A DNA stretch of 64,000 nucleotides from an archaeon (GCA_043823195.1 JBDRAZ010000103.1:42038-106037); one strand, 5' to 3'; positions 6,576 through 40,616 are shown, counted from the first letter of the stretch. Notes: generated by a model not told the origin, from the letters alone. Numbers and translations are program-made.

Positions 6576-6576
6576 T

Positions 6577-20013: not shown

Positions 20014-21448
20014 ATGGCGGATGTCATTCTTGTGCAGCCCAGAAGCGAGTTTCTTGATCGTCTGCAGGTGCACCCAAACATCCCTTTGAACCTTCTGGCG
20101 CTCGCATCCCGTCTGGACAGCTACAATGTCCGGATTATTGACCAGCGCACGGAACCCGGCTGGAGGGGCCAGCTCAAAAGGCACCTCCGGACTGACCCGG
20201 TTGCAGTAGGCATATCCTCAATAACCGGGAAACAGATCTCAAGCGCGCTGGATATTTCACAATTTGTCAAAAAGCACTCAGCGGCCGCAGTTGTCTGGGG
20301 CGGCCCGCACGCAACCCTTGAGCCCAGGCAGACCGTTGAAAACCAGTACATCGACATTGTGGCTGAAGGTGACGCAGAGGAGTCGTTCCCATCTGTTGTT
20401 GACCATCTTGAGGCGGGCTCCGGCCTGGACAGGGTCAAGGGCATCTGGCACAAGAGCAAAAGGATCACCTGCAATGGCCCGTCAAAGCCCTTTGACCTCA
20501 ACATGCAAAGGGACCTGCCTTTTGGGCTTCTTGACATGAGGAGGTACCTGGGTAAGGAAAAAAGGCTCATGATCGAGACCTCCCGCGGGTGCCCATCTGC
20601 CTGCACATACTGTTCTGCAAACAGGCACCCCTACAACGCCATGTCCCCTGAAAAAGCCGTTGACCTGATCCAGGCAGTATCTGGCTCGTATCATCTGGAG
20701 CACATCGCGCTTGCTGATTCAAATTTTTTTTTTTGACCACCGGCGCGCCCTGAGGATTATCCGGGGAATGATCAGGGAAAAGGTTGCCGCCAGGCTGTGG
20801 GTCCCAGGAACCCACATCATTCCGTTTTCGCGCTATGCAGGCCCTGAGCTCCGGCTTGTGCAGAAAGGCTGCAGCTATCTTGGGGTTGGAGCGGAATCAG
20901 GTTCCGACGCAGTCCTGAAAGAAATCGGAAAGAACATTACTGTCAGGCAGGTCACTGACTTCAACAGGAAGATAAAGGAATACGGCATCACGGTAAACTA
21001 CAATTTCATGAGCGGCTTCAGGGGCGAGACAGTGGATGACCTGGCATCAACAATCAGGCTTATGCTGGACCTGATCAGGCAGAACCCAAACGCAATCGGC
21101 GGACCGGTCAACCCTGTTCAGATCCTCCCTAGGACCCAGGTCTACAAACAGGCTGTACATGATGGCCTGCCGCCTCCGCGCAGGCTTGAAGACTGGATCC
21201 AGTTCAACAGCACCCTGGGAAGCAAGCTTGGGCATCTTCCGTGGGTTGACGCAGAACGGGCCGGCCTCCTCAGGGGCATCTATATATCTTCGCTGTTTCT
21301 GAACGACCAGTCGTCATACCTTCACACAAAGGCACTCAAGCCCGTGCATAAGCTGTTCAGGCGCATCTCAGAATACCGGCTGCGCAACCTGGCCTTTGGG
21401 CTTATGCCTGAAAGAGCAGTATACAACGCTCTTGAGGGGTTGCTCTAA
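20014..21448 (+). pseudogene. B12-binding (class B) radical SAM enzyme, frameshifted in a T11 homopolymer (20724-20734)
   Basis: ORF 20014..20736 has the B12-domain N-terminus and SRGCPSACTYCS, and ends ..ADSNFFF*. ORF 20711..21448 continues the TIM-barrel in the +1 frame. Joined they read ..ADSNFFFDHRRALRII.. One extra or missing T in the run restores the frame. Confidence 0.6.
20724..20734 (+). repeat. T11 homopolymer at the frameshift point
   Basis: Counted directly: aaa + 11 t + gacc. Confidence 0.8.
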
Positions 21449-24125: not shown

Positions 24126-24905
24126 TCAGCCAAGGGCGATTCTGTCAATATACAAAACGCGGTCTTCGCCAAGATTATCCGGAGTCGGCTGATCGATGCG
24201 TATTCTGTAATTTGTCACCCGGTCAAGATTCTTCACGCCATTGCCCCTGAACGGAAAATTTTCCCCCGGCGCTTCCAGGCTTTCAAACGGTATTGTAATT
24301 GATGTCCAGTTTCTCATATGCAGCACATCCCCGGAGGCATAATGCCACCAGTCTCCGTCTTCATCAACGACCCAGAATTGCAGAACCCCGCCTGACCCGT
24401 CCGGCTTCAATGACAGTTGGACACTCCCGTACCTGCTCCAGTTTTGACTTATTCTCTTGTATATCTTTATGTGCTTCCCGGCCTCATATTCGCCGAAATT
24501 GAACTCGATCATCATCGAGCTGTTGCCATCAAAGGAGACGCCTGAGGCAATGCTGGCATTCATTCTGATGGTGGGCTCATTGATGTCGTCTTTTCTTCCG
24601 AACCTTTCAAAAACAAAACCATCAATGCCCCGCTCAAAATCATCAAGTACTGTCAGGTTGCCCTCGGCCCTGCCAAAGGCGTCATCAAACAGCCCATCCC
24701 GCAAGCCTGCATCCTGTCTGCCTTCATTGTTATGCACCCAGAAGAAAAAGGCCACGATGAGAAATGCACTGATCCCCATGGCCAGGAAAAATGTCTTTCT
24801 TTCCCAGTCATCGGCTCTGCTTTTCCCGGTCAAGTCGTGCTCAGGTGATTTCATCGATCCTGCATAAGTGATGCTCTTATTTATTTCTGCCTGTCTGCCG
24901 GACAA
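24126..24905 (-). CDS. membrane-anchored CBM11/CIA30-like beta-sandwich domain protein
   Basis: One N-terminal TM helix (FFLAMGISAFLIVAFFFWV), then a domain paralogous to the C-terminus of 16582..18729 and to 30936..31688. Confidence 0.5.
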   Translation of the reverse strand: MSGRQAEINKSITYAGSMKSPEHDLTGKSRADDWERKTFFLAMGISAFLIVAFFFWVHNNEGRQDAGLRDGLFDDAFGRAEGNLTVLDDFERGIDGFVFERFGRKDDINEPTIRMNASIASGVSFDGNSSMMIEFNFGEYEAGKHIKIYKRISQNWSRYGSVQLSLKPDGSGGVLQFWVVDEDGDWWHYASGDVLHMRNWTSITIPFESLEAPGENFPFRGNGVKNLDRVTNYRIRIDQPTPDNLGEDRVLYIDRIALG

Positions 24906-26859: not shown

Positions 26860-27984
26860 TCAGTCATCCCCTTCAATCATCCTCCTCAGCCATCTCCTCT
26901 GGGTTGTATGGCTGGGGTTGCACTGCGCGCAGTAGGAAGGTATCTCCCTCGCGAGAAGCCCCTTCCTGATCCTCTCAAAATACGGGCCGTACCATATGTC
27001 CGAAAGCGGCCGGTCACGTATGCTGTCCCCTTCATCTGTTGCAACGTCGCATGAAATCACCCTGCCGTCTGCCTTGACAGTCATGTGCAGCCAGGGGTCA
27101 TAGCATGGGACTGAAAGCAGGGACCGGCCATCGAACTCTTCGGAATCCTTCCTTACCACTTCGTGCATCGAGCTGCTCTTTTCGATAAGCTCATCATCAA
27201 CATTGCAGTCCAGGGTTGAGAAATTGCTGTCGATGCCGTACTTGCGGCCAAGCGCAATTGCCTTTTTCAGGTATTTCGGAAACTCTTTCCTGTGTTCCGC
27301 TGTGAGCCTTAATTCCTCGCCCCATTTTGAATATATGATTATTGGCTCAACAAACATGTACTCGGTCCCGATATCCCTTGCCAGCCTAACCATCTCAGGC
27401 AGCTGTTCGCAGTTCTTCACAGAGAGGACCGTATTCGTATTGATCATTGGCTTGCTGCTTTTCAGCCTCTTCTTGATCTGGCTGAGCCTCTTTGCCGCGC
27501 CGGTTGCCTTATCAAATGTCCCGGGGATTCCGCGCAGGTAGTCATGCGTCTTTGCATCAGGCCCGTCTATGCTGAAATGGATCCTGTCCCATCCGATCTC
27601 AACCAGGGTTTGGAGCTGCCCGGCAGAAAGGTTAGTGCCGTTTGTTGTCAGTATTCCGTACATGCCGTGCTTTTTAATCTCCCTTATCACAGGGAATGCG
27701 ACCTCCGGCACAAATGGCGGATCACCCCCGCCGGCAATATGCCATTCCCTAACGCCAAGTTCAGCCGCCTCGCGGACGATGGATACCCACTTCTCCTTCG
27801 GCATCTCAATTGTCCTGGAAAACTCATTTATGCGCCCGTATTTCTCATCAGCCCTCCTTGAGCATGACAGGCAGGTCAGGTTGCATCTCCGGTGCAGCTC
27901 AATATCTATCTTGACCGGCCCGGTTGGCCTGCCCTTATGCCAGCTGACCAGCCTCCTTATCTTTTCACGCTCAAGATCATCCAT
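26860..27984 (-). CDS. radical SAM enzyme with SPASM/twitch-type C-terminal domain
   Basis: RRLVSWHKGRP..HRRCNLTCLSCSRR, AGGGDP, TTNGTNL, VPCYDPW..GRVISC..CAQC. Confidence 0.75.
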   Translation of the reverse strand: MDDLEREKIRRLVSWHKGRPTGPVKIDIELHRRCNLTCLSCSRRADEKYGRINEFSRTIEMPKEKWVSIVREAAELGVREWHIAGGGDPPFVPEVAFPVIREIKKHGMYGILTTNGTNLSAGQLQTLVEIGWDRIHFSIDGPDAKTHDYLRGIPGTFDKATGAAKRLSQIKKRLKSSKPMINTNTVLSVKNCEQLPEMVRLARDIGTEYMFVEPIIIYSKWGEELRLTAEHRKEFPKYLKKAIALGRKYGIDSNFSTLDCNVDDELIEKSSSMHEVVRKDSEEFDGRSLLSVPCYDPWLHMTVKADGRVISCDVATDEGDSIRDRPLSDIWYGPYFERIRKGLLAREIPSYCAQCNPSHTTQRRWLRRMIEGDD

Positions 27985-27997
27985 CTAAGATAGCCCC

Positions 27998-29199
27998 CTA
28001 TTGAAAATTGCGCGGTGTACCCTGCACGAGCGGGGATAGGCGGTGATTATTCCTGATTCTGTTTCTCAGCTTATGGAGCGGGCTCTTAAGCAATCTGGCC
28101 AGGCTGTCTCTTGTCTTCCTTGTCTCGACGACAATACCTGAGGCACAGGTCCTGCAGTAAGACGGCAGTCTGCCGCTGACGACATCTTCCCGCAATTTTG
28201 CAAAATATGGCCCGTACCATATCTCATGAAGCGGCCTGCTATGTATCTTCTCTGCGTCATCCTGGAAATCGCACAGCCTGCACATCACCACATGCCCGCT
28301 GGCCCGGATCTCCATGTTAAGCCATGGCTCGTAGCATGGCGCTGAGAGAAACGGGTCATCACTGGGTTTCTTTTTGGCGTCATCAACCAGTATCATGTCC
28401 ATCTTGGTCTTGTCGATAAGCCTTGACTCCTGCAGGCTCTCCAGGTTTGTCGGCACGCTGAGCTTCCAGGACAGCTCCAGTGCTTCCTGTATCCCTTTCT
28501 GGAATTCCGTCTTCTGCCCCTCAGACAGCTTCAGCGTCTCGCCGGCTTCAGACCACACATTCAATGGCTCAAAGCACACCCCGTCGCAGCCCAGCTCATG
28601 CCCCCACTCTACCATCTCTTTGAGATGATTGTAGTTGCGGTTCGTCAGAACGGCATGAAAGCTGTAGGCCGGAACCCTGCTCCCGTACTCTTCCCTGTAT
28701 TTCTTGAAGTATCTCATGGTATTGACACTCCTCTCAAATGAGCCGGCAACCCCGGTCACATAATCATGGATCTCCGGGTTTGGGCCCTCCAGGCTGAACA
28801 GTATCTTGTCCCATCCGATCTCCACAAGGTTTCTTGCGGATTCCTCTGTAAACAGCGTCCCGTTTGTGGTCAGGCAGCCGAACATGCCGTATTGCTTTAT
28901 GAGGTTCATAATCCTCAGGGCGGTATCCGGCCTTGCCATCGGCTCCCATCCCCCGGCAATCTGCCACTCCAGTACGCCAAGCGCCGCAGCCTCATGGACA
29001 ATCTGCAGCAGCCTTTCCTCAGTCAGTGCTCTGGAATAGTTTGTGATCTTAAGCCGGTCCTCAGACCTCTGCCAGCAGAATTTGCACTTAAGGTTGCATG
29101 AATGCGTGGGCTCAAAATCTATCTTGACAGGTCCGGCCCTTTCGCCCCCGGCCCACCTGGCAAGCCTCTTTATGCGTTCTTTTTGAATTCCCTCATTCA
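27998..29199 (-). CDS. radical SAM enzyme with SPASM/twitch-type C-terminal domain (start taken at MNEGIQKERIKRLARW; the ORF extends to 29302)
   Basis: THSCNLKCKFCWQR, AGGWEP, TTNGTLF, APCYEPW..GHVVMC..CRTC. A TATA-like ttataggatatatga lies just upstream of the chosen ATG. Confidence 0.7.
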
Positions 29200-29361
29200 T
29201 CTGCTCTAGCTCATATATCCTATAATGCCCCCGGCACATGATGGGAAAGTCAAGTTTTTTATATAGTTTATGATGGGCCGGGGCATGCCTGCCTTGCGGC
29301 ACGGGTGCGTCAAACCCTTTTTAGGCCCGGGAAAATAATATCTCGCGCCTTGCCTGGCACC

Positions 29362-29375
29362 TAGCTAACATTTAT
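29362..29375 (+). promoter_or_regulatory. TATA box (acatttatatagat) about 30 nt upstream of 29403
   Basis: AT-rich box at the canonical distance from the start codon. Confidence 0.4.
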
Positions 29376-29402: not shown

Positions 29403-30926
29403 TTGGGGGCACCTCTAACGATGGGCTACAGGACTGCCATGGCAGCATCTCTTAAACGGGACAGGTATTTTTGCCTGCTTATTGGAATTCTTCTGTTGTC
29501 TCTTTTTTTCAGGGTCTATGGCCTGTCTGCCGGCCCGCTGAGGAATGATGAGGCATATGATACTGTTTTCAGGGGAATGGATGCCGGTGTCGCAATCCAG
29601 CTTTACAGGTTGCTTGATTGGGGTCCGCCGGTTTTTTACCGCCTCATTATCAGGTTATCATCTTCTTTTCTGCCTTACAATGAATGGGGTTTAAGGTATC
29701 CTTCAGTGATATTTGGGGCAATAAGCGTATTATTGATTTATTATCTGGGTGCGCATCTATTTAGCAAAAAGACCGGCCTTATTGCAGCCCTCTTAATGGG
29801 CATAAATCCGTTTCATATTTACTATTCGCAGCTGGCGAGGGGCTATTCATTGTTCATAATGCTGGTCATGCTTTCCAGCCTGGCATTTTTTCAGTTCATA
29901 AAAAGCAGGGGCTATAGGTCCCTTCTGGCTTACACTGCGGTCACCCTGCTCGCATTGTACACCCATGAGACGCTTGTATTTCTTGTGGTTGTCCAAAACG
30001 TGCTGTTCTTTCTTCAGTACCGGGGTTCCGGAAGGGCCTTATTAAAATGGCTGATCCCCAATTTTTTATTTGTGGCGGCATTTTTCGGGATATACAATTT
30101 TTTTTTTTTCCATCGGGTAAAGGTACGTTACACTGAGACCCTGTGGTGGATTCCGCGGCCGGAACCCGGCGCCCTGTTCGGGACTCTCAAATCCTTTCTT
30201 TACGGTCCGTACTATCACCTCACAAACCATTGGTTTCAGCTATTGCTTGGTATGTTTGCTTTTTTTGTTCTATTCCTGCTGATTCATTCACTGGCCAGTC
30301 CCGGGAGGGAAGCATGGAAGCTGTCTTATCTGGTCCTGCTTCTTATTGTGCCCGTTGCATCCGTCTATATCTGGTCTGTTCTGGGAACCCCCTATTCCCT
30401 TTATAACAATGACTATCTGGTTGTGTGCCTTCCTCCTCTCATCTTATTGCTGTCTTATGCAATCTCCGGCCTAAAAAGGGGACACATTCCGGTGTTTGTG
30501 ATTCTGTTTCTTGCCGTTGTGGGTCCCCTGATTGTGTTGGGCGGCTATTCAACGGTTCAAAACAGGGATGTGAGAGGCGCAGCCGGCTACATACAATCAA
30601 TAAATCCCGATGCTTTGATTCTGGTCTACCCGTCATGGTACATGCAGCTCGCAAATTTCTATCTTGGTCAGCGGTCAAGAATATCGTCAACAAAATCCGG
30701 TGAGGAATTCAGGCAGGCAATAGGCAATGAGACTGAATTCTGGATCTTGTTTGGCTCTGCAGAATTGCCCGGAGACTATGAGAGCATCTATGGGATAACC
30801 GATAATGAAACAGCAAAAGGCTATGATGTCACTGTATCAAGGGCGAGGGGGATTGATATCTTTCGCTTTGTCCGCAGGGGGTGTGGGCATCATCCCTGCA
30901 GATCCACAGATAATGGTGATGAATAA
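29403..30926 (+). CDS. GT-C-type glycosyltransferase, PMT/ArnT (GT39/GT83)-like polytopic membrane protein
   Basis: RVYGLSAGPLRNDEAYD..RYPSVIFGAISVLLIYYLGAHLFSKKTGLIAALLMGINPFHIYYSQLARGY matches the conserved first-loop DE motif plus TM2-4 of the PMT_2/ArnT family. About 11 TM helices. Confidence 0.6.
   Translation: MGAPLTMGYRTAMAASLKRDRYFCLLIGILLLSLFFRVYGLSAGPLRNDEAYDTVFRGMDAGVAIQLYRLLDWGPPVFYRLIIRLSSSFLPYNEWGLRYPSVIFGAISVLLIYYLGAHLFSKKTGLIAALLMGINPFHIYYSQLARGYSLFIMLVMLSSLAFFQFIKSRGYRSLLAYTAVTLLALYTHETLVFLVVVQNVLFFLQYRGSGRALLKWLIPNFLFVAAFFGIYNFFFFHRVKVRYTETLWWIPRPEPGALFGTLKSFLYGPYYHLTNHWFQLLLGMFAFFVLFLLIHSLASPGREAWKLSYLVLLLIVPVASVYIWSVLGTPYSLYNNDYLVVCLPPLILLLSYAISGLKRGHIPVFVILFLAVVGPLIVLGGYSTVQNRDVRGAAGYIQSINPDALILVYPSWYMQLANFYLGQRSRISSTKSGEEFRQAIGNETEFWILFGSAELPGDYESIYGITDNETAKGYDVTVSRARGIDIFRFVRRGCGHHPCRSTDNGDE
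30098..30109 (+). repeat. T12 homopolymer inside the GT-C coding region (encodes N-F-F-F-F), currently in frame
   Basis: Counted directly. Same AAT(T)n codon context as the frameshifted T11 tract at 20724. Confidence 0.8.
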
Positions 30927-30935
30927 CAGGATCAG

Positions 30936-31688
30936 ATGGCGTTAAAACCGATAATGAAATGGATTAGGCGGCATTTTATGTATAAAGAATCTGCATGGCC
31001 CGACATGGCCGGCCTGCCGGGAGTCCTGGGGATAAGCATAGTCATCATGGCCTGCATTGCCCTCCTTGGCGCATTTGGGGTTCTCGGGGGCCATGATAGT
31101 CACAGTGCAGTGTATGTAAGCTATCTTAACTCCAACATTAGCGGGGAAACAGCCATGCTGTCTGATTTTGAGGGCGGCGGTGTTGATTTCAGGCTGGAAA
31201 AGTATGGCAAAAACCACGGCACAGATGAGGGCACCATATTGCTGGAAGCGAACCTGGACCGGTCAGCACCCTATGCCGGCAGTCAATCCCTGAGGCTTTC
31301 GTTCAATTTCGGGGAGCCGATCACAGGCACACCCAAGCACATAAAAGCCATTAAGGCAGTCAGGCAGGACTGGAGCCGGTTTGAATACCTGAATTTTGCT
31401 GTGAAGGGTGATGGCCGCGGCGGAAGATTGTATCTGTGGGTTGTTGATGGTGATGGGGACTGGTGGTATTATTCCAGCGACCATCTATTGTACTCAACAG
31501 ACTGGAACCTTGTTACAGTCCCGCTGGACCAGCTGAGCGGGACTGGGCCGAATTTTCCATATCATGGTGATGGGAACAAGGACTTTCATGATGTGGCAGA
31601 ATACAGGATAAGGATAGAGCAGCCGGTAAGGGAGACAAATGGCGCGGATCGGGAAATATACCTTGACAGCATATTCCTGGGGCGGTGA
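30936..31688 (+). CDS. membrane-anchored CBM11/CIA30-like beta-sandwich domain protein
   Basis: N-terminal TM (GISIVIMACIALLGAFGVLGG), then a domain paralogous to 24126..24905 and to the C-terminus of 16582..18729. Starts 10 nt after the GT-C gene's stop. Confidence 0.5.
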   Translation: MALKPIMKWIRRHFMYKESAWPDMAGLPGVLGISIVIMACIALLGAFGVLGGHDSHSAVYVSYLNSNISGETAMLSDFEGGGVDFRLEKYGKNHGTDEGTILLEANLDRSAPYAGSQSLRLSFNFGEPITGTPKHIKAIKAVRQDWSRFEYLNFAVKGDGRGGRLYLWVVDGDGDWWYYSSDHLLYSTDWNLVTVPLDQLSGTGPNFPYHGDGNKDFHDVAEYRIRIEQPVRETNGADREIYLDSIFLGR

Positions 31689-31898
31689 TGCGCAGGCACC
31701 CCTGCAATGCCTATGCCAATGAACCCGCGCGGCCTCATATTTATTGTGCCGTAAAACATTTGACTCTTTCTCAACCCGGGGCCGGCATGGGCATGAGGCT
31801 GCCGGGACATTCACTGAAAAAGCAGAGGGAATCATGGATGACGGCGACGGGTCACAAACGCCTCAGACCTGCGCACAGCCTAATCTGCATAAAGCCAA

Positions 31899-31910
31899 TA
31901 TTTATATAAA
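31899..31910 (+). promoter_or_regulatory. strong TATA box (atatttatataaat) about 130 nt upstream of the rSAM gene at 32040
   Basis: The implied leader of ~105 nt contains two hairpins and a U-tract (element copy B). Confidence 0.4.
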
Positions 31911-31951
31911 TCTTGCTGCAGCAACCGGGTTGGGATCTGTGCGCATATTCA

Positions 31952-32015
31952 TTGAAAATTGCGCAGGGCCTAAAACCCCGCACTTTCGGAAATTGCTCCG
32001 GGCGGCGGGTTTTTG
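31952..32015 (+). repeat. copy B of the recurrent GC-hairpin/U-tract element (ttgaaaattgcgcagggcctaaaaccccgcactttcgg..ccgggcggcgggtttttg)
   Basis: AAAACCCCGC..GCGGCGGGTTTTT inverted repeat. Lies between the TATA box and the start codon. Confidence 0.5.
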
Positions 32016-32039
32016 TCATGTGAGTTCCTCGCCGAAAAA

Positions 32040-33128
32040 ATGAAATCCTGCCTAAAATTAATGCCTTACGTTATGGGGTATCGCCTTTCCAGGCTATCAC
32101 TCCTGCAAACACCGCTGCCTGTAAACATTACTCTCTCGCTGACAAACAGATGCAATTCAAAATGCAAAACCTGCAATATCTGGAAGTGCCCGCAGGTTGA
32201 AGAGCCAACCCTGGATGAGCTGGAAATGATATTGAGGTCACTGGGTACCGTGCCTTTCTGGTTCACACTTACAGGCGGCGAGCCCTTTCTGAGGGGCGAT
32301 CTCGCGGATATCGTGGGGCTCATATGCACAATAAGCAGGCCGGCCATTATCGCCATACCGAGCAATGCATCACTCCCTGGCGCCATTGAGCGAACAGCGC
32401 GGAAAATGCTGGGCATCTGCAAAAAGAATGGTGTTCATTTGGTGATAAACCTCTCCCTGGACAACATAGCGGGCAAGCACGACCGGTTAAGGGGCCATCC
32501 GGGCAGCTTTGACAGGTTTAATGATACGTTCCGGAGGCTGGCCGGCCTGCGGTCCGACTACAAAAACTTTACTCTGGGAATTAATACCGTGATCTCGCGG
32601 TATAACGCAGACGATTTCTTTTCGATCTATAGGTATGTGAATCACATTAGCCCCGACAGCTACATAGTTGAGCCCGCCCAGGAGAGAAAGGAATACATGA
32701 ATCTTGGAGACAACCCGCTCCCTGATATGCAAAAGTATGCAGGCATCATAGGGTTTCTCCGGAAAAATCCGCAGCATCGCAGGAATAATGTGCATGGCAT
32801 GAATAATATATATTCGCTCCTGGTCAATGTGCTGAGGAGAAGATACTACATAGCGACATTGCCTCAGCCAGGGAAAAAGCAGGCCGTCCCCTGTTATGCG
32901 GGAAGGGCATCGATGTACATATCAGGCCGGGCAGACGTCTGTCCCTGTTCGGTATTATGCGAATCCCTGGGAAACCTTAAACGCCGGAAGTATGATTTTA
33001 AGGGGATCTGGCGTGGTGAAAAAGCAGACAGGTTACGAAATGCAATTAAACAGCGGAAATGTGCCTGCACCCAGGCAAATGTCAGCTACACGAATCTAAT
33101 GTGCGGGTGGCCGGTTTGGCAGGTTTAA
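32040..33128 (+). CDS. radical SAM enzyme with SPASM-type C-terminal domain (subfamily distinct from the six paralogs)
   Basis: LTNRCNSKCKTCNIWK, TGGEPF, C-terminal VPCYAG..GRADVCPCS..KCACT. The ORF track starts at TTG 32013; ATG 32040 is preferred because the hairpin/U-tract ends at ~32015. Confidence 0.65.
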   Translation: MKSCLKLMPYVMGYRLSRLSLLQTPLPVNITLSLTNRCNSKCKTCNIWKCPQVEEPTLDELEMILRSLGTVPFWFTLTGGEPFLRGDLADIVGLICTISRPAIIAIPSNASLPGAIERTARKMLGICKKNGVHLVINLSLDNIAGKHDRLRGHPGSFDRFNDTFRRLAGLRSDYKNFTLGINTVISRYNADDFFSIYRYVNHISPDSYIVEPAQERKEYMNLGDNPLPDMQKYAGIIGFLRKNPQHRRNNVHGMNNIYSLLVNVLRRRYYIATLPQPGKKQAVPCYAGRASMYISGRADVCPCSVLCESLGNLKRRKYDFKGIWRGEKADRLRNAIKQRKCACTQANVSYTNLMCGWPVWQV

Positions 33129-33129
33129 A

Positions 33130-34197
33130 TTGAAACAGCTGGATGTCCTTGAAACCCTTCTTGCCAAAAAGGGGCGGTATTCGGTCTTTCTAGATTTCTA
33201 TGGTGTCCGGGCCAGGCTGGAGAGCGATAACCGGGGGATAATTGATTCAATGGAGTTTCACTTCAGATATTTTGTTGCTGATGAAGCAGCGGACCATGAG
33301 ATAACAATCAGGATTTTTCATGAAAAAATAGATTACTCGGTGCTGCCGTACGCTGAAGCCTCATCTCACGCTCCGCATTCATTTTCCTATGACCTCAGAC
33401 AATACAGGATTGTTGATTATTTTGGCAGGGCACTGGCAATTTATAATTATGATACCGACACGGGCGCAATATTCTTTGCCGACTCAGAGTTTGAAGATGA
33501 AACCACATATCTGCTGGTCATGTCAAGAGTCGGGGAATTTCTCGACAGGAAGAAAATTCACCGGATTCATGCACTGGGCGTTTCCTGCAAAGGCAGCGGG
33601 GTGGTTTGCGTTCTGCCTCAGGGCGGTGGGAAGACAACCCTGGCACTTGATCTGCTTAAGGAAAGGGATATTCAGCTGCTGTCAGAAGACACGCCGCTGA
33701 TAAACAAAAAGCTGAAACTGCTGCCCTTTCCGATACGGATGGGCATCAGGATGGAAGATGTAAAGAGGTCAGGAATAGGAACCGGGCATCTTAAGGAATT
33801 TCGCCGTGCATATCATCCTGACAAATACGTGCTGGATTTAACTGCCAGCAGGGAAAAAATATCAAGGCCCTGCAGTGCCAGGGTCCTTATCGTGGGCAAG
33901 CGCGTTCTGGGCGACAAGTCAATAATCGTGCCGGTCAATAAAGCAAGGCTTTTCATGCCCTTATTGAAGACGGTAGTCTTTGGCCTTGGGCTTCCCCAGG
34001 TAGTGGAATACTTCTTGCGCGGGAATCCTGTTTGCGTTATGAAAAACATCAGGATCGCATCGCTGAGATTAATGCTGGCAGTTAAGCTGTTATTGAGGTG
34101 CGATACCTACATCTTCTTCCTGGGTCAAGACACCGGCAAAAATGCCCGGACATTGAAAAAGGCATGCAGGCGGTTAACGCGGAAGGCGTCTTCATGA
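33130..34197 (+). CDS. HPr-kinase-like P-loop protein (HprK-related kinase); TTG start 1 nt after the rSAM stop
   Basis: RIHALGVSCKGSGVVCVLPQGGGKTTLALDLLKERDIQLLSEDTPLI matches the HprK C-domain pattern (H.s.V..G.GVL..G.SG.GKS..AL.L...G..LV.DD). Confidence 0.55.
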   Translation: MKQLDVLETLLAKKGRYSVFLDFYGVRARLESDNRGIIDSMEFHFRYFVADEAADHEITIRIFHEKIDYSVLPYAEASSHAPHSFSYDLRQYRIVDYFGRALAIYNYDTDTGAIFFADSEFEDETTYLLVMSRVGEFLDRKKIHRIHALGVSCKGSGVVCVLPQGGGKTTLALDLLKERDIQLLSEDTPLINKKLKLLPFPIRMGIRMEDVKRSGIGTGHLKEFRRAYHPDKYVLDLTASREKISRPCSARVLIVGKRVLGDKSIIVPVNKARLFMPLLKTVVFGLGLPQVVEYFLRGNPVCVMKNIRIASLRLMLAVKLLLRCDTYIFFLGQDTGKNARTLKKACRRLTRKASS

Positions 34198-34631
34198 TGA
34201 TTAAGATTGATATAAGGGATCAGTATCGGGCAGATATCTATGGGTTTGGAGAGATATACGAGATTGTATCCGTAAACTACCTGTTGCAGAAGCTTAGGGC
34301 GCGATACGCCGGGGGGGACCTTTACCTGTTTGACGGATCTGATGTGCGTTACACCGGCCTGAGGGATTATCTGATTATGGGGGAAATCCCCTTTGAAGAG
34401 GGGACTGCGGACCGTCCCCCCTGGAAACCCAAAACGAGGACGCATCAGAGGCCCGTCACAGCCTATCCTGCTGTCCGGGATCTGGCAGCCCTTGCATTCC
34501 GTTTATTGGTCAGGCTTGAGTTTTTGTGGTCGCAGGCCCATTTGAGGTATGTCTTTACAGCTATGCCCGTTGCATATATGCCGGTTGCAGATGTGCCTGT
34601 TGCAGATATGCCTGTGCGCGGGTTAAGCTGA
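34193..34631 (+). CDS. hypothetical 146-aa protein with C-terminal pentapeptide repeats (MPVAY/MPVAD/VPVAD/MPV); start ATG overlaps the kinase stop (ATGATGA)
   Basis: Start/stop overlap indicates translational coupling. The C-terminus is encoded by four tandem 15-nt repeats. Confidence 0.4.
34563..34622 (+). repeat. 4 x 15-nt tandem direct repeats (atgcccgttgcatat / atgccggttgcagat / gtgcctgttgcagat / atgcctgtgcgcggg)
   Basis: Read directly. In frame at the 3' end of the 146-aa ORF. Confidence 0.7.
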
Positions 34632-34661
34632 TCCGGGGTCCGGCTGATCCCGTATCTTGTT

Positions 34662-34740
34662 TCCGGGCGGCTCAGGATGGTTACAAAGCGCCGGGTCTAA
34701 AACCCCGCACTTCAGTGCAGGGATGAGCGGCGGGTTTTTG
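34662..34740. terminator. copy C of the recurrent element, acting as a bidirectional intrinsic terminator between convergent genes
   Basis: CTAAAACCCCGCAC..agtgcaggg..GCGGCGGGTTTTTG: GC stem flanked by an A-run and a T-run, located between the stops at 34631 and 34712. Confidence 0.45.
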
Positions 34741-35803
34741 CGATAAGCTGGTGCTTGATTCTCTCATTCTCCACATGCACTACAGCACAGCACTGTCTGC
34801 AGTAATGCGGCAGGTCCCCCGCAAGGAGCCTTTTTCGTATTGTGCCAAATGCCCTGCCATCCCATATGTCACGGAGTGACCTGCCGTTCAGGTTGTCCCC
34901 TCCGTGGCCTCCTGACATGCTGCACGGCCCGACCGATCCGTCAGGAAGAATTATCATATTGTACCATGGCTCAAAGCAGGGGGCATTGAGGAACGGGTTC
35001 TTCTCGCAGCTGCCTTTTTTTTTGATTAGCTCATCCATGCTCTCTGATGCGTTCTCAACGATCTGCCCATCAAGAAATGACAACACGTTGGTATATGTCC
35101 CATGCTTCTCTGCGATTTCAGCAGCTTTCTTGATGTGCCTGGGCAGCAATGAGCGTTCGTCCGGACTGAGTTCCAGTTCCCTGCCCTCTCTTCCCCAGAC
35201 AGTCATGGGCTGAAACTGGATGTCGCTGCATTTCAGCCTATTGGCCAGTTCCGCCATCTCAGCAATCCTGTTATAGTTCCTGTTGCTGATTACGGTATTG
35301 ATCCGCAGCACCGGCAGCCGGGCCCCTGTCTCCTTCTTGAGCTGATTCAGGGCCTCAATGTTCCTGATTATCTTATTAAACGTCCCGTCCCTGCCCCTCA
35401 GATAATCGTTTACTTCGGGGTCAGGCCCGTCTATGCTCACAGTTACTACGTCCCATTTGCTATCTACCAGAAGGGGTATTGCCGAATCCAGCAGGGTTCC
35501 GTTTGTTATCAGGAGCCCATGCATTCCCTCGCTCTTGATCTGCCCGATTGCCTCCCTGATTCCCTCTGAGAGCAAAGGCTCGCCGCTGCCCGGAATCCTT
35601 ATCTCCTTTACGCCAAGCCGGGACGCCTCGCTAATGACAGATGCAATCCTGCCCCGGTCCAGCTCTGCAGGTTCAGGTTCATGCTCCCTGAGCCAGCAGC
35701 TCCGGCATTTCAGGTTGCACCTGTTAGTGGGGTTAAGCTCTATTGTCACCGGTCCTGCGCTTCCACCTTCTGCCCATCTGCTGAGCCTCTCGATCTTATC
35801 CAT
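34712..35803 (-). CDS. radical SAM enzyme with SPASM/twitch-type C-terminal domain
   Basis: IERLSRWAEGGS..TNRCNLKCRSCWLR, GSGEPL, ITNGTLL, APCFEPW..GSVGPC..CRQCC. Confidence 0.75.
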   Translation of the reverse strand: MDKIERLSRWAEGGSAGPVTIELNPTNRCNLKCRSCWLREHEPEPAELDRGRIASVISEASRLGVKEIRIPGSGEPLLSEGIREAIGQIKSEGMHGLLITNGTLLDSAIPLLVDSKWDVVTVSIDGPDPEVNDYLRGRDGTFNKIIRNIEALNQLKKETGARLPVLRINTVISNRNYNRIAEMAELANRLKCSDIQFQPMTVWGREGRELELSPDERSLLPRHIKKAAEIAEKHGTYTNVLSFLDGQIVENASESMDELIKKKGSCEKNPFLNAPCFEPWYNMIILPDGSVGPCSMSGGHGGDNLNGRSLRDIWDGRAFGTIRKRLLAGDLPHYCRQCCAVVHVENERIKHQLIAKTRRSSLH

Positions 35804-35855
35804 GCAGCCCCCATCAATGAATTAACCATCAATAAATTAAAATAGTTGGTTCAAA

Positions 35856-35870: not shown

Positions 35871-35896
35871 AGTTGCGCTATTTTGATGATTACAAT

Positions 35897-37324
35897 ATGC
35901 GATACAAAAAAGCACTGCTGATAGTGCCCCCGACAGGGCTCTACCGCAGGGAGGACCGGTGCCAGTCGCGTGTGGACACCCAGACTGCCCGCGTTATCTT
36001 CCCGCCCATGGCCCTTGCGCACATGGCATCGTCCATGGTTAACGGGGGAGTTAAATGCCTGATCCGGGACTACGCAGCCAAAGGCGCGGGATGGTCTGAT
36101 TTCACAGATGACCTTAAGAAAACCCCTGCCGATCTTCTGATTATCAGCACCACCGGCGCAACACTGGAATCTGACCTGAAGGCAGCCCGCCTGGCAAAGA
36201 AGGCCAATCCCGGCATCCGGGTTGCAGTAATCGGGATGGCGGCAGGCCTCCGGGATTCCTGGGTTCTGGCCAGATACCCCGCAGATTTCATAATCCGCGA
36301 GTCTCCGGAATCAACAATCAGCTGGCTCATTGATGCGCCCGTCGGCAGGGTGCCCAACATATCATACCTAAAAGACGGAAAGCTGGTCAGGGCCCGGAGC
36401 CTGAAGCTGACCGGCCCCCTGGATGAACTGTTTCCGGCTGCACGCCATCTGCTCGACAACCGGCTTTACAGGGATCCGCGCACCGGAAGGATGCTCACAA
36501 TGATTGAGTGTGAGCGCGGCTGCCCGAATTCCTGCATATTCTGCACAGCGCCAATGACGCACGGGAAGATTCCCAGGTACAGGAGGCACGAGCACGTCAT
36601 ATATGAGATCAGCCAGTCGCTGAAATTGGGGATCGGGAGTTTTATCATGAACGGTGACACCTTTACGCATAACCCCGGCTGGGTGATGGGGCTGTGCAGG
36701 AAAATTGCACCCCTCGGGATTGAGTGGGCCTGCAACAGCCGCGTTGATGCGCTTAATCTCCGGATGCTCAGGGCCATGAAGGATTCCGGCTGCTATCTCA
36801 TTGGGTTTGGCATAGAAAGCGGAAACCAGCAGATCCTGCGGAAGATCCGCAAAGGGACCACTGTTAATGCAATCAGGAGAGCAATTGCCCTCTGCAGGCA
36901 GGCGGGGATAAGGGTGCATACCTTTTCTGTGATAGGCTTTCCCTGGGACACTGAAAAAACAATCTACGATACCTACCGGCTGATCAGGCAGGCGGATCCG
37001 GATTATTTTGACATCAATCTCGCAACTCCGCTGCCGGGATCGGAATATTACGCCATTGCCTGCCGCGAGGGCCTGGTAAAAAAACTGACCTATGACTACG
37101 CCCGGGCGTCTGTCTCCACTTTCAGCCTCAGCGCGCCCAGGCTGGAAAGACTCAGGGCCCGGATTCTCATGCGGCTGTATGCCCGGCCGGGTTATGTAAT
37201 CAGGACCCTTTTGCGGGCCAGGTCAGCAGCTGAACTGAAACGCCTTTTCTGGTCAGGTGCCAGACGAATAGAACATCTGCTGTCCGGCAGCTTATTTTTG
37301 CTTTGCGCGCAGGTCACTCTCTGA
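35897..37324 (+). CDS. B12-binding (class B) radical SAM enzyme
   Basis: MRYKKALLIVPP..(B12 domain)..ECERGCPNSCIFCTAP..FIMNGDTF..SRVD..FGIESGNQ. The ORF track starts 24 nt earlier at 35873. Confidence 0.7.
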   Translation: MRYKKALLIVPPTGLYRREDRCQSRVDTQTARVIFPPMALAHMASSMVNGGVKCLIRDYAAKGAGWSDFTDDLKKTPADLLIISTTGATLESDLKAARLAKKANPGIRVAVIGMAAGLRDSWVLARYPADFIIRESPESTISWLIDAPVGRVPNISYLKDGKLVRARSLKLTGPLDELFPAARHLLDNRLYRDPRTGRMLTMIECERGCPNSCIFCTAPMTHGKIPRYRRHEHVIYEISQSLKLGIGSFIMNGDTFTHNPGWVMGLCRKIAPLGIEWACNSRVDALNLRMLRAMKDSGCYLIGFGIESGNQQILRKIRKGTTVNAIRRAIALCRQAGIRVHTFSVIGFPWDTEKTIYDTYRLIRQADPDYFDINLATPLPGSEYYAIACREGLVKKLTYDYARASVSTFSLSAPRLERLRARILMRLYARPGYVIRTLLRARSAAELKRLFWSGARRIEHLLSGSLFLLCAQVTL

Positions 37325-38355: not shown

Positions 38356-39657
38356 ATGAACATCGCAGTAATTGGAACCGGATATGTCGGCCTGACTGTC
38401 GGCGCATGCCTTGCAAACCTCGGCAACGACGTGATATGCGCCGATAAGGCGAAGGAGAAGATTGAAAACCTCAAAAAAGGCGTGCTCCCTATCTACGAGC
38501 CCGGACTGAAGGAGATTGTGGACCGGAACGCAGCAGAGGGCAGGCTCAGCTTCACCACTGATGCAGCCTCAGCCGTGAGTACCTCGGATGTCATATATAT
38601 TGCTGTCGGAACCCCTTCGGGTGAAGATGGCTCAGTGGACCTGTCCCAGGTCAGGGATGCGGCGCAATGCATTGGCCGGAACATGCATTCCTGCAAGATT
38701 GTTGTGGTCAAGAGCACTGTTCCTGTCGGCACATCCGGAAAAATCAGGGAGATCATCAGGGACAATCAGGCAGAGCCATATGACTTTGACATGGTGTCAA
38801 ACCCGGAGTTCCTGCGTGAGGGTTTTGCAATACAGGATTTTACCAGTCCCGACAGGATAGTGGTGGGGGCAGACAATGACGGGGCCAGGGAGACCATGGT
38901 TTCGATATACAAGGCAATAGAGCGGACAGGCAAGCCGATTTTGTTCACAGACATAAACAGCTCTGAGATGATCAAGTACGCGAGCAACGCGTTTCTTGCA
39001 ACAAAAATATCCTTCATCAATGAGATCGCAGGGCTCTGCGAGATTGCCGGCGCGGATATCAAGATGGTTGCAAGGGGAATGGGGCTTGATACCAGGATAG
39101 GCCCGAGGTTTCTCCAGGCAGGGGCCGGCTATGGGGGGAGCTGCTTTCCGAAAGATGTTAAGGCGCTTATTGCGACCGGCAGGGATAACGGGCTGAAGCT
39201 GTCAATACTTGAGGCTGTGGAAGATGTCAACCGCAGCCAGCGCAGGGTTATACTGGAAAAGGTGAAACGCTTGCTGCCGGATCTCAAAGAAAAAAAGATC
39301 GCCGTCTGGGGTCTTGCATTCAAGCCAAATACCGACGACATCAGGGAAGCCCCGGCAATTGAGATCATCCAGGAACTTCAGAAAGAGGGGGCGGCCATCC
39401 ATGCCTTTGATCCTGCCGCAGTTGAGACCTCAAGGGAGGTAATTCCTGACGCAGTGTTCCACAGGAAGGCCCTCGATGCGGTCAGGGGGGCTGACCTGCT
39501 CCTCATAATGACTGAGTGGGACGAGTTCCGCGAGCTTAACTTGAAGAAGCTCAGGGCCCTGATGGGCTCTCCCAACATTGTGGATGCAAGGAACATCTAT
39601 GAGCCGAAGGACATGTGCAGCCTTGGCATTAATTATGCCGGGGTGGGCCGGAAATGA
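38356..39657 (+). CDS. ugd: UDP-glucose 6-dehydrogenase
   Basis: [30 protein letters not shown].., catalytic GGSCFPKD, 433 aa. Confidence 0.8.
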
Positions 39658-40616
39658 GAATCCTGGTCACCGGTGGGGCAGGCTTTCTTGGAAGCCACCT
39701 GTGCGATTATCTCCTGGCCAGAGGCCACAGCGTAATCTGCATGGACAACTACATTACCGGGAAGAGGGACAACATCGGCCACCTTCTCGGAAAAGAGGGC
39801 TTTGCCGTTAGTGAGCACGATGTTACTAAGTATATCCGCCTGGAGGGCAGGCTTGATGCGATCCTGCATTTTGCGTCCCCTGCGTCCCCCATCGACTATC
39901 AGCAGATACCCATCAAGACGCTTAAGGTTGGCAGCCTCGGCACCCATAATGCCCTGGGCCTGGCCCTTGCCAAAAAGGCCAGGTTCCTGCTGGCCAGCAC
40001 ATCTGAGGTTTACGGCGATCCGAAGGTTCATCCGCAGCCCGAGACATACTGGGGCCACGTAAATCCTGTGGGCCCGAGGGGCTGCTATGATGAGGCCAAG
40101 CGCTTTGCAGAGGCAATTACAATGGCATACCATCGCGCGCACAAGGTCGACACCAGGATTGTCAGGATATTCAACACATACGGCCCGAGGATGAGGGCAT
40201 CAGACGGAAGGGTCGTCCCGACCTTCATCAGCCAGGCGCTCAGGAACGAGCCCATCACTGTGTTTGGCGATGGGTCACAGACAAGAAGCTTCTGCTACGT
40301 CGCCGATCTGATCGAAGGCATATACCGGCTGCTTGAGTCCCGGCCTGAACGTGGGCCCGGCAATGAGCCTGATGTTCACGACCCGGTGAACATAGGCAAT
40401 CCGCACGAGATGACTGTCCGGGGGTTTGCAGAGAAGGTGATTGCATTGACCGGCAGCAGCAGCAGGATCGTGCAAAAGCCGCTTCCCATAGATGATCCGC
40501 TGGTAAGGCAGCCGGATATATCGCGCGCAAGGAAGCTGCTGGGCTGGGAGCCAAGGGTTTCCCTGGAAGAGGGCCTTAGCCATACCATATCGTTCTTCCG
40601 GGACAATAACCTTTAA
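39654..40616 (+). CDS. UDP-glucuronate decarboxylase (UDP-xylose synthase) family SDR
   Basis: [18 protein letters not shown].., YDEAKR, about 320 aa, directly downstream of ugd with a 4-nt overlap. Confidence 0.7.

Follow-up and report, generated by a model that had tools for sequence, protein, structure and literature searches.

The enzymes HprK/P and PEPCK carry the motifs GKSE...ADD and GKTT...GDDEH respectively. Radical SAM (rSAM) enzymes that act on sugars and have no RRE are known among the SPASM/twitch and B12-binding types (BtrN, NeoN, HpnJ and the GenK-type B12 methylases). The three-component polyprenyl-phosphate glycosylation systems GtrA/GtrB/GtrC and CsbB-GtcA-YfhO transfer an unmodified hexose, GtrA and GT-C proteins act on polyprenyl-phosphate carriers, and WbdD is the chain-terminating glycan kinase of ABC-transporter-dependent O-antigen synthesis, in which a eukaryotic-like protein-kinase fold is joined to a methyltransferase domain. 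To our knowledge GtrA/GtrB/GtrC and CsbB-GtcA-YfhO include no rSAM enzymes, no P-loop kinase and nothing like the small protein called ORF3 below, and we know of no description of a cassette with one SPASM rSAM, three B12-rSAMs and an ORF3-like gene.

The locus described here resembles several of these systems in part. Its P-loop protein has, like HprK/P and PEPCK, a Walker A motif and an acidic pair about 18 residues apart, but with 355 aa it falls far short of PEPCK in length, its family's C-terminal helical region with the invariant GLGLPQxVEYFLR has no counterpart in either enzyme, and the context is glycan synthesis rather than the PTS or gluconeogenesis. The nearest sequence families are TIGR04355 and TIGR04352 (HprK-related kinases B and A) and the HPr-kinase homologues of lasso-peptide clusters; with TIGR04355 the N-terminal domain and the P-loop are shared. 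The rSAM of the locus, like the sugar-tailoring enzymes, is without an RRE, and the best match of a B12-rSAM close by is HpnJ. As in GtrA/GtrB/GtrC and CsbB-GtcA-YfhO, the gene cassette described below contains a GT2, a GtrA-family protein and membrane transferases, and PMT_2 genes stand beside the locus. With WbdD there is a functional analogy only: a soluble kinase-like gene likewise lies near Wzm/Wzt and glycosyltransferases (ABC-2 genes adjoin in 9/40 loci of the P-loop family), but the two are unrelated in sequence and fold, and the DNA studied here uses a Wzx flippase, not Wzm/Wzt. Unlike GeoRSP and lasso systems, the locus lacks a PqqD/RRE, lasso B/C genes and an rSAM of the GeoRSP type; the neighbours are of the GT2, ABC-2 and GT-C types.

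Genes and features of the locus

The features on which the analysis draws are as follows.

29403..30926, + strand: PMT_2-type (GT-C) membrane glycosyltransferase (Pfam PMT_2, 46.2 bits), upstream of the trio
30936..31688, + strand: CBM_11-like protein (Pfam CBM_11, 25 bits, slightly below the cut-off)
31901..31910, no strand assigned: palindromic TTTATATAAA, ~130 nt upstream of the ATG at 32040 and probably an archaeal TATA box
31961-32015, + strand: copy B of a ~55-nt element (A-tract, GC stem, U5), in the leader
32040-33128, + strand: radical SAM/SPASM gene lacking an RRE, whose family is found alongside ORF3-like genes
33130-34197, + strand: PEPCK/HprK-fold P-loop phosphotransferase-like gene of an uncharacterised family
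34194-34631, + strand: ORF3, a conserved ~125-aa alpha/beta domain with a tail predicted to be disordered, ~145 aa in total
34558-34615, + strand: 15-nt tandem repeat (TRF: 3.9 copies, 83% matches, score 81)
34688-34740, + strand: copy C of the ~55-nt element, which runs into the 3' end (stop and final codons) of the convergent gene 34712-35803
34712..35803, - strand: convergent rSAM/SPASM gene (Pfam), a paralogue of the 26860 and 27998 genes
35873..37324, + strand: B12-binding radical SAM enzyme (Pfam), grouping (cluster c3) with the B12-rSAM genes found downstream of ORF3 in other loci
39654..40616, + strand: SDR epimerase/dehydratase (Pfam Epimerase, 172 bits; cluster c4)

The rSAM/SPASM, P-loop and ORF3 genes are three real genes, packed in operon-like fashion on the + strand. 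As the initial annotation had it, the first is an rSAM/SPASM gene at 32040..33128, the reading frame agreeing with Pfam matches to Radical_SAM (39.6 bits) and SPASM (25.7 bits), both of which exceed the Pfam cut-offs; a TTG at 33130, 1 nt past the rSAM stop (TAA, 33126-33128), opens a gene whose product carries the P-loop GGGKTT; and the ATG of ORF3 at 34194 overlaps the stop of that gene (TGA, 34195-34197) as ATGA. NCBI places the rSAM start at 32073, giving 351 aa, and its ORF3 annotation (MFH1850432.1) begins at the second ATG. The tight packing is as first described, but the trio does not look like a self-contained peptide-modification system; it is a mosaic of two separate gene settings.

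The window, that is the whole 64,000-nt stretch of archaeal DNA that was analysed, is occupied by a 45-kb glycan island holding 14 radical SAM genes. It carries genes for sugar nucleotides (a UDP-Glc dehydrogenase, SDR epimerases, three DegT aminotransferases and an NTP-transferase) and for glycan assembly (a Wzx flippase, GT4, GT2 and three PMT_2 genes), together with a carbamoyltransferase, a phosphodiesterase and, at 7023-8870, a true GTP-PEPCK; a tRNA search across the window found none. The PMT_2 gene product at 29403..30926 also matches Agl23 weakly, and the CBM_11-like gene, the last ahead of the leader of the trio, has paralogous domains at 16582-18729 and 24126-24905. The paralogy of the convergent rSAM gene with the 26860 and 27998 genes is visible in the DNA (D1-D5).

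A recurrent cassette with the rSAM and ORF3 families

The rSAM cluster motif CX3CX2C of the 32040 product is formed by C38, C42 and C45, with 37 residues ahead of it, and a Cys-rich SPASM domain is present at the C-terminus. Homologues number 477 at E<=0.001 (the best listed being ~38-46% identical) and come from archaea, Calditrichota and others; one is named as PTO1314 family in NCBI. The curated families are distant: the protein scores 45.9 bits against TIGR04303 (GeoRSP rSAM/SPASM, cut-off 400) and 43.8 bits against TIGR03961 (PTO1314 family rSAM, cut-off 306), and none of the tested rSAMs of the window reaches a curated NCBIfam cut-off for an rSAM family. Family HMMs were built from homologues for both rSAM and ORF3. 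The 32040 rSAM gives 446 bits with its family HMM, while the rest of the window's rSAM genes give 25-58 bits (50 bits for the convergent gene).

ORF3 has no match in Pfam but scores 118 bits against the HMM built from its homologues; the conservation expected of this ~146-aa reading frame is borne out. A conserved globular domain spans residues 1-123, and G16, G18, Y21, E22, G69, D72 and H115 are invariant. The tandem repeat, first described as four copies of 15 nt, has that period with 3.9 copies by TRF, and codes for MPVAY-MPVAD-VPVAD-MPV; as it is confined to the last ~22 residues, the label of repeat protein misleads for the whole. This tail is absent from every homologue and unique to this genome, is predicted to be disordered, and ends ...VRGLS. 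One homologue (P0262) is a GT2::ORF3 fusion with B12-rSAMs on its flanks; assignment of its GT2 domain to the GT2 subtype of the cassette was rejected, the similarity being generic to GT2.

An rSAM of the 32040 family (293-610 bits) lies near ORF3 in all 15 of the 15 ORF3 loci with enough flanking sequence. The gene order is GT2, rSAM/SPASM, SDR epimerase/dehydratase, an ORF3-like gene (~140 aa), two to three B12-rSAM genes and then GtrA/GT-C, and from independent gene calls and Pfam this ordered cassette was seen in eight loci (L059, L062-64, L066, L070, L072 and L085). The membrane transferases of the cassette elsewhere are of the YfhO, DUF2079, PTPS_related and PMT_2 types, accompanied by a GtrA-family protein, and in L085 an LPG_synthase_TM gene follows. 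Judged by these profiles, the rSAM and ORF3 of the window belong to the two paired families of the cassette. The present locus departs from the canonical order in that the P-loop gene fills the SDR slot between rSAM and ORF3; no GT2 gene lies upstream of or adjoins the trio, unlike the cassette elsewhere; the usual adjacency of ORF3 and B12-rSAM is broken by the convergent gene 34712..35803; and the cassette-type SDR (39654..40616), which clusters with the epimerase usually sited between rSAM and ORF3, sits 5 kb downstream of the trio.

The P-loop gene behaves differently. A genome scan for its family succeeded with an alignment of 10 sequences. The family occurs in 0/25 ORF3/rSAM loci, and ORF3 was absent from all kinase loci by tblastn and then by the family HMM. 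Synteny of the trio in other genomes, which the initial annotation had proposed as a check, is therefore not seen, and the trio appears to be a mosaic in which a kinase-like gene is wedged into a conserved rSAM and ORF3 pair.

The P-loop protein

The nucleotide-binding domain of the 355-aa protein has the three-dimensional fold of the PEPCK/HprK P-loop superfamily. In an alignment of 39 family sequences the Walker A residues G166, G167, K168, T169 and T170 (GGGKTT) are conserved, positions 186-187 of the acidic pair (SED, ~18 residues past Walker A) are E/D-D/E throughout, and H144 and H147 are invariant. The Walker A is a competent one, and like HprK/P and PEPCK the family combines it with an acidic pair and conserved His residues.

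The curated cut-offs for the HprK-related kinases, to which the gene had been likened, were far from reached. TIGR04355 aligns with residues 17-194 at 26.7 bits (E 2.7e-6; cut-off 200 bits) and matches 31/39 family members (best E 3.6e-8), whereas TIGR04352 gives no match to the protein itself at E<=0.01 and weak matches to 20/39 of its relatives. HPr kinase/phosphorylase proper (PF07475/TIGR00679) does not match the protein; relatives reach ~16 bits against the HPr kinase cut-off of 33.3, with weak TIGR00679 matches in 6/39. A Pfam search of the protein returned nothing, including Hpr_kinase_C and PEPCK (PF27840 is recorded for two relatives), and a PDB profile search gave no significant chain, only generic P-loop matches with E>0.07.

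Outside ORF3/rSAM settings the family occurs in about 55 loci, beside GT2, Wzm/Wzt and PMT_2 genes. GT2 adjoins the kinase-family gene in 13/40 loci and lies within 8 kb in 25/40, an ABC-2 permease/ATPase adjoins it in the 9/40 already mentioned and is present in 14/40, and in annotated metagenome loci PMT_2, GT2 and GT4 genes adjoin it. The closest homologue with context (P0003, 44% identity) is a lone gene flanked by Kae1 and a tRNA-intron endonuclease gene, so that the family's tie to glycan genes is not universal, a point against the reading proposed below. In the literature searched the term 'HprK-related kinase' was not found, nor was any link between HPr-kinase homologues and polysaccharide clusters.

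A probable role in glycan tailoring and its alternatives

We consider it probable that the trio belongs, as one fragment of a mosaic, to an archaeal island for the biosynthesis and tailoring of a surface glycan (or glycolipid), and that it is not an autonomous peptide-modification system. The composition of the cassette suggests that a nucleotide- or polyprenyl-phosphate-linked sugar is tailored in the cytoplasm, then flipped and transferred; we infer each chemical step from the gene neighbours. The rSAM/SPASM enzyme and ORF3 would be two members of a recurrent sugar-tailoring cassette, with ORF3 as an accessory subunit or small enzyme alongside the radical SAM enzymes. The P-loop protein may be an ATP-dependent phosphotransferase acting on the sugar or on a lipid-linked glycan intermediate, and its phosphate might serve as a decoration or a chain-end mark ahead of export or transfer. 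Against this reading, no GT2 adjoins the trio, and the lodging of the kinase between rSAM and ORF3 could be a real three-way functional link special to this lineage. A more far-reaching proposal, which we put forward tentatively, is that rSAM/SPASM, ORF3-like protein, two to three B12-rSAMs, GT2 and SDR make up an undescribed multi-radical-SAM pathway, with ORF3 as a new obligatory partner and the PEPCK/HprK-fold protein as a new kinase of glycans or lipid-linked sugars, welded into one operon here; such a pathway would equip a carrier lipid with a heavily tailored sugar (e.g. a multiply C-methylated one), in organisms that include DPANN archaea and CPR bacteria.

If the glycan reading is right, three families now called just 'hypothetical' or 'radical SAM protein' would gain a defined setting. 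In archaea and many bacterial phyla, a PEPCK/HprK-fold phosphotransferase family would be linked with genes for glycan assembly and export, and a radical-SAM and small-protein pair would be central to a sugar-tailoring cassette of seven genes that DPANN archaea have in common with CPR bacteria. In these organisms surface chemistry is probably important for attachment to hosts.

The initial annotation had read the trio as a compact rSAM-plus-kinase peptide-modification cassette, and this reading is not supported. No PqqD match was obtained with the three products at E<=0.01, and profiles of the RRE-bearing AlbA, SkfB and StsB align to the rSAM only from their positions 109, 97 and 95, past their RRE. 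The 351 nt at 31689-32039 hold nine ORFs of at least 20 aa, none with a Cys/Ser/Gly-rich end; the three that were tested score negative for coding (very short peptides lie beyond this test), so that no credible precursor ORF was found. No lasso genes occur among the neighbours of the trio, and the trio is not co-conserved. Both component families sit in glycosyltransferase-rich clusters, as does the window, and this counts against a peptide cassette; an HprK-like kinase beside an rSAM/SPASM gene is not by itself a sign of a RiPP system. The precedent for a peptide kinase is that HPr-kinase homologues of lasso-peptide clusters phosphorylate the C-terminal Ser of the precursor (PMC8498205), so the fold is able to act on peptide Ser.

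A narrower form of the peptide idea, that the rSAM/SPASM enzyme acts on ORF3 as substrate or scaffold and that the kinase here also phosphorylates its new tail, could draw on this precedent, on the Ser at the end of that disordered tail, on the translational coupling of the trio, and on the strict co-location of the rSAM and ORF3 families, as expected of an enzyme and its dedicated substrate. We think it improbable, since ORF3 is a ~145-aa well-folded alpha/beta protein with invariant residues and without a Cys/Ser/Gly-rich core, is also found fused to a GT2, lacks the tail in all homologues and is adjoined by the kinase family nowhere else, while RRE/PqqD are missing and the cassette partners are sugar enzymes. 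That the cassette instead tailors a membrane-lipid or glycolipid head group, the P-loop enzyme phosphorylating a lipid-linked intermediate, is somewhat less remote, though unlikely: the 35873 B12-rSAM has HpnJ, a hopanoid sugar-head-group rSAM, as its best NCBIfam match (178 bits, under its cut-off), the N-terminus of the 32040 rSAM weakly resembles the tetraether lipid synthase Tes, L085 has its LPG_synthase_TM gene, and the GtrA and GT-C partners work on polyprenyl-phosphate carriers, but all these matches are far under curated cut-offs and the Wzx flippase, DegT aminotransferases and nucleotide-sugar enzymes of the window are typical of glycan repeat-unit synthesis.

The leader and the repeated element

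TTTATATA, at 31901-31910, is found at 9 sites in the window where 0.89 would be expected, and most of these are intergenic. This distribution fits an archaeal TATA box, in agreement with the one originally claimed upstream of the leader; here it would be a putative promoter element. The trio was also said to be bracketed by hairpin and U-tract elements. Two flanking copies do exist, and they agree at 23/25 positions of one shared arm and at 14/14 of a second, shorter one, but their folding is weak: the 105-nt leader RNA (MFE -33.7 kcal/mol) is only modestly better than shuffles (z -1.6), and copy C on the + strand is no better than shuffles (z = +0.9). On the minus strand copy C forms a hairpin followed by UUUGU right after the stop of 34712-35803. 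Copies B and C are most simply read as terminator-type hairpins; copy C would serve the convergent gene, and copy B may be a duplicate of it in the leader. The weak hairpin folding statistics count against the overall reading of the locus given above.

Two other explanations concern this element. Insertion or rearrangement of the 2.7-kb trio in the recent past, with the two ~55-nt direct repeats as junction or recombination scars rather than regulatory elements, is in our view unlikely. The repeats lie exactly at both ends of the trio; the 3' arm of copy C codes for the final codons (AKTRR) of the neighbouring gene, which makes copy B look like a copied gene end; the three genes have a GC3 of 0.54-0.59, lower than the 0.64-0.66 of the flanking rSAM genes; the rSAM gene has a codon-usage score at the low edge of the window genes; and the gene order departs from the conserved cassette. 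Yet other window genes have equally low GC3, no integrase or transposase gene lies within the segment or next to it, the similarity ends abruptly after 55 nt with no gene remnant in the 351-nt spacer, and with two copies only there is no population of elements. It is less likely still that copy B is an attenuator-type premature terminator in a signal-controlled leader, although the TATA-like box lies ~60 nt upstream of the hairpin and U5, with the start codon ~25 nt further, and the leader is long in comparison with that of the TTG 29403 gene, whose TATA box at 29371, 25 nt before the start, leaves little or no leader. Neither the leader nor the terminal element matches an Rfam family, the fold z is only -1.6, and the same element at a gene end has the look of an ordinary terminator; nor is the leader conserved, since homologous rSAM genes have a GT2 gene upstream.

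The lettering had implied a further copy of the element, and a search of the window for a 'copy A' gave only copies B and C. The 16-mer CTAAAACCCCGCACTT occurs exactly twice, with one more site at 3 mismatches (0.47 expected at that threshold), and copy B also scans as a terminator-like hairpin on the minus strand.

Organization of the three-gene segment

Re-reading of the sequence indicated that the initial annotation was largely right in its description of the ORFs, their coupling and the tandem repeat. The segment carries the following genes:

32040-33128, + strand, radical SAM/SPASM (rSAM/SPASM) gene; CX3CX2C cluster at C38/C42/C45, Cys-rich domain at the C-terminus
33130-34197, + strand, P-loop gene of 355 codons with a TTG start 1 nt past the rSAM TAA; carries PQGGGKTTLALDLL
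34194-34631, + strand, ORF3 of 145 codons, whose ATG at 34194 is overlapped by the TGA of the P-loop gene

The 32040 product matches Pfam Radical_SAM (39.6 bits) and SPASM (25.7 bits), each above the cut-off. Hits of this rSAM include Calditrichota and a protein encoded on a 4.7-Mb contig. In the NCBI annotation of this archaeal MAG the three genes are consecutive on a 160-kb contig with locus tags near ABH879_09725 (MFH1850430.1, MFH1850431.1 and MFH1850432.1), the first being a 351-aa 'radical SAM protein' with a start later than 32040 and the others both labelled 'hypothetical protein'. The tandem repeat is a 15-nt unit present in 3.9 copies at 34558-34615 (Tandem Repeats Finder, 83% matches, score 81).

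TTTATATA occurs nine times in the window against 0.89 expected (about 10-fold enrichment), at 6576, 19999, 24053, 29258, 29371, 31901, 31903, 38241 and 55998, mostly in intergenic positions, as would be expected of archaeal TATA boxes. As the copy at 31901-31910 lies about 130 nt ahead of the rSAM start, it suggests a transcript with a long leader, while the copy at 29371, only 25 nt ahead of the TTG of a PMT_2 gene, suggests a leaderless transcript for that gene.

The P-loop protein represents a new family with an HprK-like fold

The 33130 product has no Pfam domain match. Its sole NCBIfam match, to HprK-related kinase B (TIGR04355), reaches 26.7 bits where the cut-off is 200. It is not a member of TIGR04355 or of TIGR04352, the two families that the initial annotation named for checking. 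A database search gave 196 relatives at E<=0.001, all unnamed (266-417 aa for the best 120), from Omnitrophota, Elusimicrobiota, Binatia, Bdellovibrionota, Acidobacteriota, Thermodesulfobacteriota and archaea. In the family alignment H144, H147, G167, K168, T170 and R203 are invariant, positions 186-187 form an acidic pair, and the family carries the motif GLGLPQxVEYFLR. Together with the AlphaFold2 model built from this alignment (pLDDT 91.8), these residues and motifs confirm the predicted HprK-like fold, as the initial annotation had inferred, and the protein is a new family in the PEPCK/HprK superfamily that retains every HprK/PEPCK catalytic hallmark. A bona fide GTP-dependent PEP carboxykinase of the same fold, otherwise unrelated, is encoded 24 kb upstream at 7023-8870 (PEPCK_N 201 bits, PEPCK_GTP 338 bits).

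The context of this kinase family was sampled at 48 genome loci and in eight metagenome contexts by clustering the neighbours and annotating cluster representatives. The top neighbour is a GT2 of about 340 aa with a membrane tail (directly adjacent in 13/40 loci, within 8 kb in 25/40), followed by Wzm/Wzt-type ABC-2 permease/ATPase pairs (adjacent in 9 loci, present in 14) and then by GT4, GT1-like and PMT_2/GT-C genes. An rSAM/SPASM gene lies within a few kb of the kinase only in a subset from Elusimicrobiota, Endomicrobiales, Planctomycetia and Omnitrophota, where the GT2 gene separates the two and the 32040-family HMM gives these rSAMs no more than 100-127 bits. One close archaeal homologue is solitary among housekeeping genes.

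ORF3 is paired with the radical SAM gene and not with the kinase

A complete HMMER search of 1.84 billion representatives gave 31 ORF3 homologues at E<=1e-3 (117-212 aa), which align to residues 2-123; none matches the repeat tail. A profile search extends the family to Aenigmarchaeota and to the CPR bacteria Moranbacteria and Kerfeldbacteria, the added members all being 'hypothetical' and having no Pfam domain. Conserved motifs are Y..I.GLGEIYEI.SV, SN.DHSGRG, GYVDSPPW.S.PR and HMVY. AF2 predicts for ORF3 a disordered tail after a compact alpha/beta domain (pLDDT 88). By codon usage the N-terminal half is clearly coding and the C-terminal half scores poorly; its conservation in the family shows that this half, too, is genuinely coding. 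Among the homologues, P0262 (L084 1878-3242) is a natural fusion of a GT2 with a membrane tail to an ORF3-like domain, and has B12-rSAM genes on both flanks.

ORF3 relatives were found at 23 loci in a metagenome scan, and these and all other loci were searched with family HMMs for the kinase, the rSAM and ORF3. An rSAM of the 32040 family was present in 15/15 ORF3 loci with enough flank, usually on the same strand and in about half directly adjacent or overlapping; these rSAMs score 293-610 bits against the 32040-family HMM, compared with 25-58 for the other rSAMs of the window. The kinase family was absent from all ORF3 loci, and ORF3 from all kinase loci, so the trio as the initial annotation described it is not a syntenic unit at the loci searched. 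Neighbour clustering and independent gene calls gave instead a recurrent ordered cassette of GT2, rSAM/SPASM, SDR epimerase/dehydratase, ORF3-like protein (140 aa) and two or three B12-rSAMs, often with GtrA, YfhO-like, LPG_synthase_TM, DUF2079 or PTPS_related membrane proteins on its 3' side. It occurs at metagenome loci L059, L062-L064, L066, L070, L072 and L085 (e.g. L085 351-8495), its carriers being Kerfeldbacteria (CPR), Aenigmarchaeota and unclassified metagenome contigs. Between rSAM and ORF3 the window has the P-loop gene in the slot usually held by the SDR, a cassette-type B12-rSAM lies beyond ORF3 at 35873-37324 with a convergent rSAM interposed, and a cassette-type SDR is at 39654-40616. 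From rSAM-ORF3 pairing without the kinase, the cassette order and the position of the P-loop gene, the trio reads as a mosaic of a conserved rSAM/ORF3 pair and a gene from another glycan-linked family.

Peptide modification or glycan tailoring

The proposal that the trio is a peptide-modification cassette was not supported. None of the three products matches PqqD, and the 32040 rSAM has only 37 residues ahead of its Cys cluster and hence no room for an RRE; maturase models that include an RRE align to it only past that domain. Nine ORFs of 20 aa or more lie in the 351-nt leader, none with a Cys/Ser/Gly-rich end, and coding scores were negative in the three tested. HPr-kinase homologues phosphorylate lasso precursors at a C-terminal Ser (PMC8498205), and by analogy the kinase might phosphorylate ORF3, which also ends in Ser, although this has a low probability given that ORF3 is a folded, conserved domain, that its tail is restricted to the source genome and that the linkage of kinase and ORF3 occurs nowhere else. 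In that genome ORF3 ends ...MPVRGLS, placing the Ser on a disordered, repeat-encoded tail absent from homologues, directly downstream of the HprK-fold kinase gene, which may be a coincidence or a lead.

We infer that the make-up of the cassette matches cytoplasmic tailoring of a nucleotide- or polyprenyl phosphate-bound sugar. In such a scheme the GT2 would do the loading, oxidation, epimerization or C-methylation would fall to the SDR, SPASM rSAM and B12-rSAMs, and GtrA and GT-C proteins would flip and then transfer the tailored sugar. ORF3 would most likely serve the radical SAM steps as an accessory subunit or small enzyme. The most likely activity of the P-loop protein would be ATP-dependent phosphorylation of a sugar or lipid-linked glycan, either to decorate it or to mark the chain end, and the many loci where its gene adjoins Wzm/Wzt fit such a role. 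Three uncharacterized families now have a defined context in glycan tailoring, and DPANN archaea and CPR bacteria have in common a conserved cassette with several radical SAM genes.

The flanking elements

The hairpin/U-tract elements said to bracket the trio were found as two copies of one element of about 55 nt, at 31961-32015 (copy B) and 34688-34740 (copy C), but their folding is weak. A 25-nt arm (23/25 identical) and a 14-nt arm (14/14) are common to both, with differing middles of 16 and 14 nt; the window contains no further copy, and neither matches an Rfam family. Copy B folds into an A-tract, a GC stem and U5 whose stability exceeds that of shuffles only modestly (z -1.6), and copy C on the + strand folds no better than shuffles. 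The convergent gene 34712-35803 takes its last residues (AKTRR) from the 3' arm of copy C, and on the minus strand the 25-nt arm gives a hairpin followed by UUUGU right after the stop of that gene. Both copies are most simply read as terminator-type hairpins, in which case copy C would be the terminator of 34712-35803 and copy B a duplicate of that gene end. A scar of rearrangement or insertion also fits, as the copies bound a 2.7-kb segment whose GC3 is slightly reduced and whose gene order is non-canonical, and copy B could conceivably be an attenuator.

The surrounding glycan island

The window from about 12 kb to 57 kb is a glycan island with genes for UDP-glucose dehydrogenase, three SDR epimerases/dehydratases, three DegT aminotransferases, a Wzx-type flippase, GT4, GT2, carbamoyltransferase, phosphodiesterase, NTP-transferase and three PMT_2 GT-Cs, two with CBM_11-like domains. 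Its radical SAM genes number 14 over about 42 kb (12119-54289), an unusual density for a surface-glycan locus:

12119, - strand, radical SAM
13590, - strand, radical SAM with SPASM
14796, - strand, radical SAM with SPASM and TPR
18726 and 22728, - strand, radical SAM of the HMPTM zinc-ribbon type
20014/20711 (+) and 21445 (-), B12 radical SAM
26860 (-), 27998 (-), 32040 (+) and 34712 (-), radical SAM with SPASM
35873 (+), 45457 (+) and 52817 (-), B12 radical SAM

One B12-binding gene is broken into two overlapping ORFs at 20014-21448, the first (20014-20736) covering the B12 domain and running into the rSAM domain, the second (20711-21448) encoding the remainder of the latter, probably through a frameshift, pseudogene formation or assembly error. 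Three paralogous minus-strand rSAM/SPASM genes (26860-29302 and 34712-35803) share repeat families D1-D5 (68-79% over 34-50 nt), and this similarity retained at the DNA level indicates a fairly recent duplication inside the island. A second 15-nt tandem repeat, two copies of CCATCAATAAATTAA (93% matches, 35811-35840), occupies part of the intergenic space that separates the rSAM gene 34712-35803 from the divergently oriented B12-rSAM gene 35873-37324. CBM_11-like domains are encoded at 16582-18729, 24126-24905 and 30936-31688, one fused to a PMT_2 GT-C transferase and two as proteins of about 250 aa, which suggests carbohydrate-binding modules dedicated to the glycan of the island.
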